This document shows positions 20,590 through 56,393 of a stretch of DNA of 64,000 nucleotides, in pieces. The position numbers were made by a program, and so were the translations under genes. Below the pieces are notes generated by a model. It worked only from the letters and a program-made list of their open reading frames with translations, did not search any database and was not told the DNA's origin. Origin of the DNA: Chiloscyllium plagiosum. Lineage: Eukaryota. Numbering within the stretch: position 1 is the stretch's first letter; every line of letters starts with the position of its first letter. Location: positions 65,665,932-65,729,931 of the forward strand of contig NC_057722.1 of assembly GCF_004010195.1 (NCBI RefSeq), read 5' to 3'.

Positions 20590-20700
20590 GATGTCGAGAG
20601 TGTGGTGCTGGGAAAGCACAGCAGGTCAGGCAGCATCCGAGGAGCAAGCGAATCAACGATTCGAGCTAAAGCCCTTCCTCAGTACTGAGGTCATTCCTTC
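20590..20700. mobile_element. One arm of the palindromic PLE-derived family seen at 31768 and 52940
   Basis: GTGGTGCTGGGAAAGCACAGCAGGTCAGGCAGCATCCGAGGAGC...AAAGCCCTTCCTCAG matches those left arms. Confidence 0.72.
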
Positions 20701-31650: not shown

Positions 31651-31767
31651 GCGAATTGAGTTTGATAAAGATTTTGATGATAACTTCACAATCAAATAAC
31701 TAACTTAAAGCAGTCAACAGAATCTATTTTCAATTAACCCACATTGGCTGTCATTTAGATTAGACTC

Positions 31768-32338
31768 TGGATCAGTGGTGCTGGAAGAGCACAGCAATTC
31801 AGGCAGCATCCGACGTGCAGCAAAATCGACGTTTCGGGCAAAAGCCCTTCATTCCTGATGAAGGGCTTTTGCCCGAAACGTTGATTTTGCTGCTCGTCGG
31901 ATGCTGCCTGAATAGACAATAGACAATCGATCCACTGTCCTCTGGGGCAGAGCATTCCACACAGCCACCACTCTCTGGGTGAAGAGGTTTCTCCTGAGCT
32001 CTGTCCTAAATGGTCTACCCTGTATTTTTAAGCTGTGTCCTCTGGTTCGGCACTCACCCATCAGTGGAAATATGTTTCCTACTGCCAGAGTGTCCAATCC
32101 TTTCATAATCTTATATGTCTCAATCAGATCCCCTCTCAATCTTCGAAACTCAAGGGTATACAAGCCCAGTCGCTTCAGTCTTTCAGTGTAAGGTAATCCT
32201 GCCATTCCAGGCATTGACCTCGTGAACCTACGCTGCACTCCCTCAATAGCCAGAATGTCTTTTCTCAAATTGCTGTGCTCTTCCAGCACCACTGATCCAG
32301 AATCTGGTTTCCAGCATCTGCAGTCATTGTTTTTACCT
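31768..32338. mobile_element. Palindromic PLE-derived mini-element interrupted by a CR1 fragment
   Basis: Hairpin centred near 31852. The right arm is split by a CR1 insert (about 31914-32267). 15-bp TSD ATTTAGATTAGACTC at 31753-31767 and 32339-32353. Confidence 0.82.
31914..32267 (-). mobile_element. CR1 3' fragment nested in a PLE hairpin
   Basis: KDILAIEGVQRRFTR...LRGDLIETYKIMKG, with an (ATTGTCT)n tail. Confidence 0.88.
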
Positions 32339-50365: not shown

Positions 50366-52939
50366 AAAAAATAGGTAGTTGGTCAGCTTGTCAGGAATCA
50401 TATCAATACAAACTGACACCAAGTTCATAAGACATTTCCACCTCACATGAGCTAGCAGCCATAAATTTGGTGCAGCAGTTAAAGTAATGACATATACGAA
50501 AGCACAATGGACAGTAATTACACTGCGCTGCCACAATACTGGCAATCCCTAGTGTCAATCAAAAATTAACAATTTATTATAATGTAGCAACTTCATTGTA
50601 CAGATATGATGTGAGTCGATATGTGGTGATAAAAAAGTTTGTCTATGTCGTGTTTATCCTGAAGATCAGGAGTCCATAGGACTTAATTCCTCTCTGTCAA
50701 TTGTTGTAGGATTAGATGAGCATTTTGTGATGATATTTTGCATATGTTGTTCTGCACCCTAGAGAGTTCATTTTGCTCATCAACAGTAGAGATAAATAAC
50801 TTCATTGTACATGATAGTATGTTAAGAAGGAATCCTGATCAACTGCCAACCTGTCTCAATTCGCTGGGTTAAATCAACAACATGCTGATGCACATCAGAT
50901 TGCCACTCCTGCCAATATTCCGGGGAAGGATATTTCTCCAACGGGAGTTGTGCAACTGGTTCCAATTTTCACCCATGGCAGGTGGGGAATGTTTATCATG
51001 GCTTGATGACTACATTTACATATATATCAAATGTGGTGTAATTTACAGTTAAATACTTGCAATTAATGTAAGAGTATTCACATTTTTTCTTACATTTTTT
51101 CTTTAATTTAAAGGTTCTATATTACATGTGAACATTGAATAGTGTAACCAAGATCAGTGAAAAGGTTTATTTTGATGAAAATGTTGACTCTATTGCAACA
51201 CATGACATTGTGAACTGGCAACCAAATGTCCTCAGTGCTATTGATATTGTAAATATTGGCCAGTATTATGGATCAGCTCATTCTAGTGAACAACTTTCAA
51301 TAACAGAAGAGCAATTGTTTGGAGTGAGGTTTGTGGACAACTGTGTTCTTCTTTTTCTCTGCCTGATTTTTAATTTCACTTTCCCTTCTCTGAAATGCAA
51401 AAGCAAACTAGTGGTTGTATCAAATAGGCGCGCCTCTCGCTCCTGGCCATTTCGTGATGTTGAGTAAAATGTCAACCCATCAGGCATATTTAAATGGGAA
51501 AAAAATTGCTCACCAATTCTAAGATAGATTAGAATATAAGATTGACCTAGAATGTAAGATTTAAAAAAAAATGTTTTATTTGCATACAATTCAAGAGCAG
51601 AATGGCTTTATTCATAATTGACATAGTTAAAAATGACAAGAAAATACAGCATAGTTTAACAATAAGAGTTACAAATGCATTAAAATCTTAAATGAATGAA
51701 CAAATTAATGTATGAACAAAGACATAAAAATGTGTGCATACTGAAAAGCACTTGAATACATTTGATTGAAATAAAAGTTCAGAGAGCAATGGATCCATTA
51801 GTTTGATGTTAAGTGTACATCATGGCTTGTGTTCATCATGCTTACAAACACATTTGTCTCAAAGAAGTGCCAAACAATAACTATCTCCAACAAGAGAGGA
51901 TGTAACCATCTCCCCTTGACATTCAATGGTATCAGCATCATTGAATTCCCTCTTAAGCATTACTATTGACCACAAATTAAACTGGAATAGGCATATATGT
52001 ATGCTGGCTACAAGAGCAGGTTACAGGCTGGGAAGCCTGTAGCAAGTAACTCACCTCTGGACCAGGATCAAGCTATCACCTACACGGCACAGCCAGGACT
52101 GCAATATAATATTCCTGCATGTCTAGATGGGTGCAGATCCAACAACTCTCAAGAGGCTTAACACCATACAAGAAAAACCAATCCAATTGATTGGCATAAC
52201 ATTCACAAACACTTCTTTCCTCTACCACAGATGCTCAGAAGTAGCATCTGCAAGATATACCGAAGAAATTCAATTATGGTCCTTAGACAGCACCTTCCAA
52301 AACCATGCCAACTTCTATCTGAAACAGCACTGGTAGCAAATACATGGGAGTACTACCACCTGCCCATTCTCCTGACAGCCACTCACCATCCTGTCTTGGA
52401 AATATATTGCAGTTGCTTCAGCATGGCCGGGTCAATAAAAATGATATTATGGATCTACCTGCAGCAAATGCATAGCAACATTTCAAGAATGCAGCTCAAA
52501 GGTAACTGGGGTGGAAAATAAATGCTGTCATCAATGGCAGAGGGAAAAAGTGTTTGTGAATGCTATGCCAATAAATTGGGTTGGTTTTCCTTGTATGGTG
52601 TCAAGCAACACCCACATCATGTGAATGAATGTTGAAATATTCTGAAACTGTTTTCATTTTAGCTATGGAACGGTATCCCTGCAAAGGAAGTTCATAAATG
52701 AGGAGCAGATAGAACGTTATTACTTTGCCATAATGATAGTGAATGACAATTTCATTTGCAGAGCCATAAATCCCAGTTTTTCTTTTAACCAATATCTATT
52801 TTCTACAGCAGACAAAATCACAATGACCAGCAGTAACAGGACTTTTGAACTTGGGTGGATAACTTGGATAATTTTATACATGTCCCTGATTTTCATTTAT
52901 TCAGATGACAAAATTGTGCATGACTTGTATTATTTAATG

Positions 52940-53161
52940 AGGAGAAAGTGAGGTCTGCAGATGCTGGAGATCAGAGCTGGAAATGTGTTGCTGGAAAAGC
53001 ACAGAATGTCAGTCAGCATCCAGGGAACAGGAGAATCGACGTTTCGGGCATAAGCCCTTCTTCAGGAATCCTGAAGAAGGGCTTATGCCTGAAACGTCGA
53101 TTCTCCTGTTCCCTGGATGCTGCCTGACCTGCTGCGCTTTTCCAGCAACACATTTCCAGCT
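52940..53161. mobile_element. Palindromic PLE-derived mini-element inside pseudogene D
   Basis: 93-bp inverted arms at 52975-53067 and 53069-53161. 15-bp TSD TTGTATTATTTAATG at 52925-52939 and 53162-53176. Confidence 0.88.
53066..53103 (+). ncRNA. Minimal type I hammerhead ribozyme-like motif
   Basis: GAATC (stem I) - CTGAAGA - A - GGGC TTAT GCCT (stem II) - GAAA - CG - TC^ - GATTC (stem I). GUC cleavage triplet; self-complementary ACGT in place of stem III. Confidence 0.65.
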
Positions 53162-53980
53162 TTGTATTATTTAATGGACAACCTATTTGCTGTTTTGATT
53201 ACATACAATGTGCACAAGATGAAATTAGTAATAGAAAAGGTAAGCAACACCATTGCTAAAGGAATTGTTGCTTAAACTTGATGTGTGCATTGCACTGTTC
53301 AGATTTCTCCTCCAAGGCCAAACCAACAATGGATCCTGGTTTACACCCTTATGCTGGTACAATGTGCAATATGTACTGCCTGGTTAATTGCATTTCCACC
53401 TTATCCTTTGAAAAACACTAGTCACTTTAATAATACAATCATGTTTGAATGCAATGTAAGATCTTCATTTGCCTGCTGTTGTGTATTCAGATGTATTGGA
53501 TTTCTGTCCTGCGTGTGTTTTGTGGTAGCTGTTCTCGGTTGACATCTTCCAGACAACTTCAATGAAGTTAAACACTAATGTTTATCATGCTTATTTTTGG
53601 CACACTTTGGATAAATTTTATATGAGCGTATATATATATCCACCACAGAAATATGCCACGCTGGTTGAAATATTTGCTATTTTGACCTCCAGCTGTGGTC
53701 TGCTTATTTACATTTTTGCTCGAAAATATTGTATCATTCTGATGAAGAAAGCAAACAACCCAAAGAGGAGCAGGATGGGTTCAGTGGTTTCCAAAAAATA
53801 ACCTTTGAAAACATTCACAAATAAGGTCCAGATATGTTAAGAGATAATTATTTTGTCATAAAAATAATGAATGGCAATTCCACATGGAACACCTAAAGCC
53901 AAAACTTTCGCCAGCATCCATTTTACACAATTATACAAAGTCACAAAGATCAGCAGGAAGAGGAATTTTTAAGTTGGGCT

Positions 53981-54616
53981 TGTTATGGACTCAGCCAGAC
54001 CACTCAAAACATTCTTAAGCAGGCAGCCCAGACCATAGCCTTGCAATTTGTTTCAGTAAGTGTGCAGTGAAAATTACCTGGAGTAACTTAGCTAGGTTGA
54101 CTACCAGATTTTTAAACAGACAAAAATTTATTCACAAAACTACAGAATGAAGCACAAAGAACAGAATAAATAATATTTACAGAACTCAGTTTATCCAAAC
54201 TGGACGTAATTATGCTGTTCTGAATGTAGGTAACAGTCCTAATAAACAACCCCTTAAACACAGAGCAAAAAAAATGAAACAAAGGATTACGGGTTGAAGT
54301 TAGAAGGGCAGAAGAAGAGAGAGTTTAGCAGCCTGTTTCCACACAGCTCCACGGCTAACCTCCTAACTTAACTTCAGTTTCCAGGACTGGCCACTCCCCT
54401 TTCATGATACATGTCATTTCTAAACATAAAAGCTTTGGCCAAAAATCTCATCTGTTTACATATAAACAAAAGGGTCTCTCAATACCCTTTTATCTCTGTA
54501 CCAAGCCAGTTGATTTGGAGCCCAGCCTGCTTACGACCGCTCTGAAGAAAACCAAAGTCACACTATCTTTGAGAAAAGGAACAGCTTTTCAGAAAAAAAG
54601 GACCAGCTTTGTAACA
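53981..54616 (-). mobile_element. Solo LTR (probably Gypsy-type)
   Basis: TGTTA...TAACA inverted termini, 4-bp TSD GGCT. Absent from the paralogous 3' flanks of genes A and B. Confidence 0.8.
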
Positions 54617-56393
54617 GGCTGATATTTTGGACTATTTTATACAACTCCCCCTGATTTCCATTTAATCAGATTGAAAATAGTGTCTGAATAAACATGGATC
54701 AAAGTCCATGTTTTCTCACTGTGTCTTGAATTCCACCATTGTGTTTCGATTTGAAACTTGTCTTTTTGAATAAAAAAAAATCAGTTCTGAAACTTGGCCT
54801 ACTCATGTGTGCAAAATAAATTATTCATATCGATTTCACAAAACACGTAAACAAAAATGCTATCACTGTGCTAATTTGACATTGGTGGGGGGGTCAATGG
54901 TGGGAAGTTGAGGTGACACTAAATGGAATAAAGAGCTTTTCTTTGAATCCACTATTTAGTGACATGATGGAAAAGTGGATAATCAACCTATTTCAGAATC
55001 AGTTTTATTATCATCTCCTGAGAAAGGATACAAATAATTTGCTTATTCATTCGTAATGGTGACATCTGTGCAACAAGTATTTGCTAATCAGCAAGCCCTG
55101 CATGCTTATTTAATTCTTAGGAAACCTATGTGTTAGATAAAATATGTTGTGTATCTTCTTGCTCAGAGCTGTAATTCACCAAAATGTTGTAGCTTGGACA
55201 TTTCGAAGACTTAATTTACCAAGTCATTCCAGAAATGTTGTACTTGATGAGACTATCACATACTGCGTGCATAGACTTCTCCGTTGATTGAAATCAAGAT
55301 AACAACTTGGTGTTTCAACAATTTATCCATTATTCATGCAATTAGCCACAATATGTCCATGGATATGAATCATTTTCTTTCTAAATAAATGTGACAGAAG
55401 TGTTGGTGTCCATCGTAGGCAACATTGCAGAAGCCATTATTAAACATAAGATGATTAAATAATTACTGAGGAATAAAATATTTCGTGAAGTGAATGGGGG
55501 TGCTTGATTTGGAAGTATTACTACTTATCTGTTTTACTCACTTCCTTTGAATTGAATTATGACTGTCGGTGGGCTGTTGTTGCATCTGTTTTTGATTTTG
55601 TCTGCTCCACGAGTTTCCCACATGAAGATGTGAATATGTTTGCCATTTATGAACTACAAGGATGTGACCTTGTTATAATTAATAGTAGTCAAATTGAAGA
55701 TCAAATTAGGCAATTGAATTGCTTGTTACATTCAGTCCAGGTTTGGCAACTATCCTATGGCTACTGACTTCCGTGGTCAACCCCATCCAAACCTTCTTTC
55801 TGGCCTGCTCCTCTTGTCCATTATAAAGATAAATATCTCTGTAACATTGTTGTTTGCAGGAGGATACCCAGAGTGATATTGTGATTACTGGGTTAGATAT
55901 TGGAAAACATAAAATAAAATTTGATAAATTGAATTTGCAGTCAGTCAGAGTTACAATAGTAAAATTACAGAATCATAGAATTTTAAAGGACAGAGGATGC
56001 CCATTCCTCCTATTATGTCTGTACTGACTCCCAGAATTCGAGCCAGCTAGTCCCATTCTCTTGTTCTCTCTATAACACTTGAAATTCATCACTTTTAAAT
56101 ACATATGTCTAGTATTATTGAAATTTGACTCCTCCATTCTCCCAGGCATTGCTTTCCAAATCCTAACAACTTTCTGAGGAAAGACATTTCTCCTCATTGC
56201 ACTGCTAATTAATGTGCTTATAATCTTGAAATTGTGACCCCTTCTTAATTCATTTGCTTTCGGGATGTGAACATCACTGGCCAGCATTTGCTGCCAATCC
56301 TTAATGCCCTGTGAGTGGAATACACTTGTGACACCATCTGGGAGGACTGGTATGAATCACGTTGCTGTGGATCTGCAGTTGTTTTTACACCAT

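Follow-up and report, generated by a model that had tools for sequence, protein, structure and literature searches.

The fold-back insert at 52940-53161 of the window, which is the whole 64,000-nucleotide stretch of Chiloscyllium plagiosum DNA analysed here, consists of two very short arms derived from a high-copy Penelope-like element (PLE) that appears to be Neptune-type. It was probably made in one event by twin priming and is likely a dead end. Its PLE identity and its de novo formation are almost certain. It is the short end of a continuous size series of high-copy PLE insertions, and the hammerhead that it carries would be inherited cargo, predicted not to fold in the insert.

Structure of the insert

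The insert measures 222 bp and lies between target-site duplication (TSD) copies at 52925-52939 and 53162-53176, which are identical at 15/15 positions. The inverted arms, 52975-53067 and 53069-53161, pair at 88/93 positions around the central base 53068, while the extension at 52940-52974 (35 nt) is unpaired. The original prediction had given the same insert size, perfect 15-bp TSD, extension and 93-bp arms, which all agree with the re-measurement, and the letters of its hammerhead at 53066-53103 on the plus strand and of the mirror copy on the minus strand are also confirmed. The features are:

52925..52939, no strand: left target-site duplication (15 bp), matching the right copy
52940..52974, minus strand: PLE "tail" of 35 nt, the RNA between two inferred priming sites, with 11,711 exact 40-mer matches; element sequence runs past the tail in loci L002 and L108
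52940..53070, minus strand: long (tailed) arm, sense on minus, inferred to match the element RNA over its first ~130 nt, with a non-native G ahead of it at 53070
53033..53070, minus strand: minimal type I hammerhead motif, predicted cleavage between 53038 and 53037, features matching the min-HHR in the available text of PMC4209133
53063..53073, no strand: head-to-head arm junction, readable as a 2-nt microhomology join, with 747 exact copies of the 33-mer centre
53066..53103, plus strand: second hammerhead motif, with a junction-made stem I and C11.1 changed to U at 53090 (CpG decay)
53069..53161, plus strand: short (tail-less) arm, sense on plus; short arms stop 25-45 nt short of the tail end, mostly 33-38 nt
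53162..53176, no strand: right target-site duplication (15 bp), matching the left copy

The arm mismatches are located at 53001/53135, 53005/53131, 53007/53129, 53013/53123 and 53046/53090, and none of these five is an ADAR-type A-to-G scar. Three transversions (C>A, G>T and G>T on the plus strand) are clustered within 9 nt at 53005-53013 of the long arm only.

The parent element

Exact k-mers were searched in 3.56 Gb of genome. Exact matches number 21,912 for a 39-mer of the arm and 11,711 for the 40-mer at 52940-52979, which covers the tail, with 0 for the reversed control of each. Both arms correspond to the element's terminal pLTR segment. Longer copies connect this arm to PLE proteins: at L054 the arm is continuous with a GIY-YIG domain (Pfam E 3.9e-5), and at L310 an RVT_1 domain (Pfam E 4e-9), a CX4CxxC linker and a GIY-YIG domain precede the same arm, with an N gap between the RT and the linker. 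The linker is found in L279, L282, L290, L291, L295, L300/L310 and L303. The parent is called Neptune-type because the available text of PMC8557442 describes a CX2-5CxxC linker between RT and GIY-YIG/EN in the Neptune clade; as Nematis has the same linker, a Nematis-type parent is a further possibility. A PDB sequence search with the element RT returned weak, unrelated matches only. The Penelope origin proposed in the original prediction is thus supported by longer copies, and its alternative of an extremely truncated inverted PLE insertion is supported as well.

Positions in the arm are numbered backward from the tail end, so that the arm starts at about -130. In longer copies the native upstream sequence is a pyrimidine-rich stretch that ends with TCATTC just before the hammerhead core. 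Element sequence continues past the tail in L002 and L108, therefore the tail end is internal to the element RNA. Reading by eye, L002:1250-1500 holds a partial tandem that keeps ~118 nt of element beyond the tail, and an ATG 37 nt past the tail end of L002 may be a candidate ORF start. At L041 and L059, also read by eye, single arms lie in or beside pieces of a second PLE-like family, which has a different GIY-YIG and is found upstream of the arm.

Tailed arms form a size series from ~45 to more than 640 nt, and 5 of 10 long loci (L303, L305, L306, L308 and L309) have the same tail-plus-short inverted layout around kb-size N gaps, which lie between the arms. Many long copies are bounded by N, no intact full-length copy was recovered among the loci examined, and this family appears to break the assembly.

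Arms and pairs across the genome

The original prediction had proposed a genome-wide census of copies and fold-back points; among the loci sampled here the junctions vary from copy to copy. The tail census covers 90 loci, the first tail matches listed along contig 1. Nine of the 90 are bounded by N and 47 of the remaining 81 have an inverted partner. Since the other 34/81 tailed arms have no adjacent inverted partner, the joining of two cDNAs is not obligatory. The 5' ends of the 81 tailed arms are found at -127 to -136 (32 arms), at -111 to -126 (22), at -110 or shorter (21) and beyond -136 (6).

Head-to-head pairs were taken from loci L001-L310 with both arms at least 88% alike, no N and a gap of -25 to 45. 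The resulting 131 pairs, in which two loci are counted twice (L145 and L245), comprise 118 tail+short, 10 tail+other, 3 tail+tail and 0 short+short combinations, and short+short is also absent (0/55) among hammerhead-anchored pairs. A TSD of 10-20 bp, mostly 13-17 bp, is present in 117/131 pairs; the TSDs listed are 61% AT and show no microsatellite targeting. Single arms, tailed or tail-less, are also present with their own TSD.

Formation at each insertion

The arms of a pair share subfamily variants far above chance. Four variants are found in both arms or in one arm in 25/3, 23/1, 8/2 and 5/0 pairs, and the chance expectations for both arms are 8.1, 6.8, 0.9 and 0.3. For CpG decay the corresponding counts are 0/9, 0/6, 2/7 and 1/10. 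Variants are shared and CpG decay is not, therefore the arms derive from one template and were not homogenised later. A C-to-A change common to the closest BLAST copies was set aside as a selection effect, since among unselected pairs it stays under the 4% cut-off.

A non-autonomous fold-back master, SINE- or MITE-like and mobilised as a unit, would account for the fixed outer ends and TSDs in 26 of the 27 closest BLAST copies and for one centre, the 33-mer of the window, having 747 exact genome copies. It is nevertheless very improbable. As many as 90 different 28-nt centres occur in 104 pairs that were not picked by similarity to the window, although some of these pairs entered the set through junction-side patterns; taken by themselves, the 46 tail-anchored pairs show 41 end-combinations. 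Against it stand also the CpG decay that is not common to both arms and a size series that is continuous up to kb. Copies with the window's centre are spread over several subfamilies, and 30 of them divide into 17 with the tail placed as in the window, 12 with it at the opposite end and 1 that is unclear; copies of a master would all carry the tail at one end, so this mix disfavours a master for this centre as well. A fixed internal structure inherited by the copies, as in SINE- or MITE-like elements, was not found. The other alternative of the original prediction, a non-autonomous ribozyme-bearing element, is not supported, since junctions differ from copy to copy, come back as mirror images and are common to several subfamilies. 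Now and then a single hairpin could still be mobilised again beside formation at each insertion.

Two probable priming sites on one RNA

Formation at each insertion probably involved twin priming on one RNA followed by end joining, a reading that combines the arm census with the in vitro work in the available text of PMC11167929. There, an anole PLE protein cleaves and extends both strands, uses two internal start sites that bound the tail, and needs no hammerhead cleavage for insertion. In the proposed series of steps, the element RNA would begin at an initiator-like site just before the hammerhead, and the endonuclease would nick the target strands with a stagger of ~15 bp. RT would then be primed by both target 3' ends on a single RNA, at two fixed internal sites separated by 35 nt, and both cDNAs would run off the capped RNA 5' end, with lengths of ~130 and ~95 nt. 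Repair would join the cDNA ends by microhomology, leaving a head-to-head hairpin with a one-sided tail.

The main alternative is self-priming, in which one cDNA or antisense transcript folds at its end, copies itself and stops 35 nt short, and central deletions later make the arms unequal. Self-priming on an antisense template has been proposed for PLEs, with junction palindromes as the published argument (PMC3846280, available text). Such a snap-back explains the shared subfamily variants equally well, and the 5' ends of both arms lie within 10 nt of each other in 74/118 pairs. It meets difficulty in 31/118 pairs, whose tail-less arm extends 5' of the tailed arm's end by more than 10 nt (the reverse is found in 13), with a largest overreach of 298 nt (L074). 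In these 31 pairs a simple copying of one arm from the other would require that the centre was deleted afterwards, and it is a point against twin priming that asymmetric arms are explicable by such deletions at the palindrome centre. A tail-less arm that stands alone with its own TSD (L160), filler bases at many junctions of the closest copies, and a fixed 35-nt offset that equals the gap between the two in vitro start sites (PMC11167929, available text) also speak against self-priming, which we regard as rather unlikely. The base after the tail end matches the RNA's next base in 56/104 arms; two bases after the CAG of the short arm match in 45/81, a weak figure as the exact end of the short arm is uncertain.

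We lean, by a modest degree, towards the broader claim that these stumps are a genomic record of PLE twin priming in vivo, with two fixed internal sites on one RNA and run-off at a capped start beside the hammerhead. A literature search that took in few subscription papers and no supplements, Repbase or Dfam turned up no account of inverted PLE ends as a product of twin priming and no description of the PLE family of the insert.

The fold-back point

The fold-back point is fairly likely to be the capped RNA start. Arms that reach -129, -130 and -134 number 21,912, 16,875 and 8,395 (exact k-mer matches). At -131 the non-native base is G in 2,747 arms, A in 1,331 and T in 515, in DNA with a GC content of ~40%. 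Neither the partner arm nor a point change accounts for this base in 20/30 (G), 15/30 (A) and 27/30 (T) loci, which gives a corrected G:A:T ratio of ~1,830 : 670 : 460 or fewer, ~3 of the T cases still looking native. The G excess rests on 30 loci per base, and untemplated C addition could also yield it. The minus arm of the window has G at 53070, where the native base is C (L042). In other retroelements, G at the first non-native base is expected from copying of the cap, and the TCA(+1)TT at the fold-back point resembles an initiator.

Two other sources of this pattern were discarded. A 3' splice site at the fold-back point has no AG, and 30 G-preceded loci have no common upstream exon; nor does the G excess stem from a native-G subfamily, as 0/30 loci continue natively.

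The RNA-start step is drawn from the genomic arms because RNA reads showed no start: in single-cell poly(A) data coming from all copies, which test this only weakly, read ends form no pile on L054 or on the window. No RNA record was listed as carrying a match to the element's 3' end. The missing start in the reads agrees with a second account, in which twin priming takes place and the fold-back lies at a polymerase pause or an RNA break, at the hammerhead 5' edge or the pyrimidine tract. The 38% of arms that extend past the point and the scatter of ends over -127 to -136 agree with it too; as 3,887 arms with C at -131 fail to reach -134, the stop varies by several bases. Less compatible with a pause or break are the excess of G as first non-native base and the initiator-like context, and tandem or read-through templates would be expected to yield copies that extend beyond the point. 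A pause or break is accordingly possible and improbable, and the capped RNA start is preferred.

The hammerhead motifs

A degenerate core pattern has 3 matches in the window, which are located in both arms and in a relative at 31855, and 0 in 100 shuffles. The CUGANGA and GAAA core, the extra base after A9, the palindrome at 15.2-16.2 and the NUH triplet are present, and core, extra base and palindrome match the available text of PMC4209133, so that the minimal-hammerhead reading of the original prediction was right. An Rfam scan of 51000-55000 gave no hammerhead family at E <= 10; miRNA-hairpin and other weak Rfam matches in that region are far below gathering scores and were dismissed.

The minus motif has an intact stem II with G10.1-C11.1, a weak stem I with U.U and the palindromic ACGU. 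In the plus motif G10.1 faces U, as C11.1 is changed to U; the C is kept in 109/116 arms. The native stem I consists of 2 bp, U.U and then 1 bp, so a helix I of 4-5 bp is absent natively. The 5-bp stem I of the plus strand exists only through the junction, and its 5' strand is half inverted arm and half native. Whichever strand is transcribed, the antisense arm comes ahead of the motif in the transcript. The predicted pairing of stems I and II is 0.0 in both full transcripts and in a plus transcript stopped at 53103, while stem II forms, with predicted values of 0.97-1.0, only in the free arm. The original prediction had placed a complete core at the hairpin centre: the letters are there, and the completeness fails on a junction-made stem I, a decayed C11.1 and a pairing of 0.0. 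The hammerhead is thus predicted to be locked in the hairpin and inactive.

It is hardly to be expected that this locus yields a working ribozyme RNA, either as a monomer or as a dimer through ACGU. In favour of such activity are all the core letters on both strands and the isolated plus-strand 38-mer, which is predicted to fold with stems I and II at -9.4 kcal/mol, its predicted dimer including ACGU pairing. The absent pairing in context on both strands counts against it. Non-CpG divergence in 148 arms is 1.9% (19/990) in the core, possibly raised by nearness to junctions, 0.9% (7/756) in stem II and 1.1% (70/6,399) in neighbouring sequence, and across these arms neither core nor stem II has excess conservation. 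The original prediction had itself named such a lack of excess conservation as evidence against it, and this is what is found for post-insertion divergence.

Cleavage has no counterpart in the ends of the arms either. There are 267 arms that start at the cleavage site and follow a purine, with true ends in 18/30 (~160), and a control position has 349 arms with 14/30 true ends (~163). A second break point at the cleavage site was therefore not found, and with ~160 ends against ~163 in the control, cleaved RNA left no mark in the window's subfamily. In the available literature, published min-HHR monomers did not cleave (PMC4209133) and the anole PLE ribozyme required protein (PMC11167929), which also argue against a working ribozyme here.

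Comparison with known elements

The insertion unit of EN+ PLEs has a pLTR, an adjacent inverted 5'-truncated copy, a 30-40-bp tail and a TSD (PMC8557442, Fig. 2 legend), and Pen2a_Av is an example in the available text of PMC3846280. The insert shows this inverted 5'-truncated pLTR copy with the optional 30-40-nt tail. It and its family share with these units (as described in those sources) the head-to-head inverted pLTR, the tail at one end, the TSD, microhomology junctions and assembly trouble in long copies. They differ in that the insert has no ORF, both arms stop at the hammerhead front and the family has tens of thousands of copies. The TSDs of the family are mostly 13-17 bp, whereas those in the rotifer EN+ PLE examples of the available text are 8-10 bp.

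Dimeric PLE hammerheads are reportedly the subject of a 2017 RNA Biology paper. The PLE min-HHR in the available text of PMC4209133 resembles the motifs of the insert in the extra base between A9 and G10.1, the palindrome at 15.2-16.2 and a short helix I. The same source describes paired motifs, one on each strand and 100-700 bp apart, that probably stem from truncated PLEs, whereas the motifs of the insert abut at the junction, have a stem II of only 4 bp and are each preceded by their own antisense copy. The available part of PMC6155905 restates only the link between hammerheads and PLEs.

PAc, a Poseidon element of the green anole (PMC11167929), is similar in its two internal start sites that bound the tail and in the extension of both target strands, and belongs to a different clade. 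Inverted insertions or a run-off point are not derived in the available text of that source, and we infer the link here. Non-LTR retrozymes (PMC7229834; bioRxiv 10.64898/2026.07.22.740005; available text of both) are likewise short, non-coding and PLE-related, with a type I hammerhead and a long TSD. They are head-to-tail tandems with circular RNA, in contrast to the copy-variable head-to-head hairpin of the insert, which is a single unit between TSDs and has no head-to-tail tandem units that each carry a hammerhead. The inverted pLTR with tail and TSD, and the minimal hammerhead, are already published features.

Surrounding sequence

The window contains a second fold-back, of a related subfamily, at 31757-31911 and 32273-32337, which has the core CUGAUGA, a 15-bp TSD and the tail on the right, and which is split by a secondary insertion of ~360 bp at 31912-32272. 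An older single-arm remnant of a related subfamily, ~81% alike, is located at 20601-20682. The insert interrupts an open frame of ~100 codons (52646-52951 and 53177-53240) that continues beyond the TSD as far as a splice-donor-like site; this frame has no Pfam match and no RNA reads and is probably due to chance. The region 52127-52640 resembles a decayed LINE 3' end and has no Pfam match. No empty-site allele was seen: the X15 and X16 contigs run through each TSD into the insert, with none extending across it.

Implications

As a locus the insert is ordinary, one decayed copy of little weight among tens of thousands; as a ribozyme it is negative, and its value for understanding how PLEs integrate is moderate. 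A warning for searches of this kind is that hammerhead descriptors will report ribozymes as "complete" in such hairpins when the junction has made them. The PLE family of the insert is a large natural dataset on how PLEs make inverted ends and tails, and its rule of one arm of each kind, its shared variants and its G-marked stop point lead to specific predictions for the in vitro system and for CAGE data. If the proposed reading is true, twin priming with run-off would account for the inverted pLTR, the one-sided tail and the junction palindrome with no antisense template, and a "strong-stop" insertion would be the default product of an element that primes near the 5' end of its RNA.
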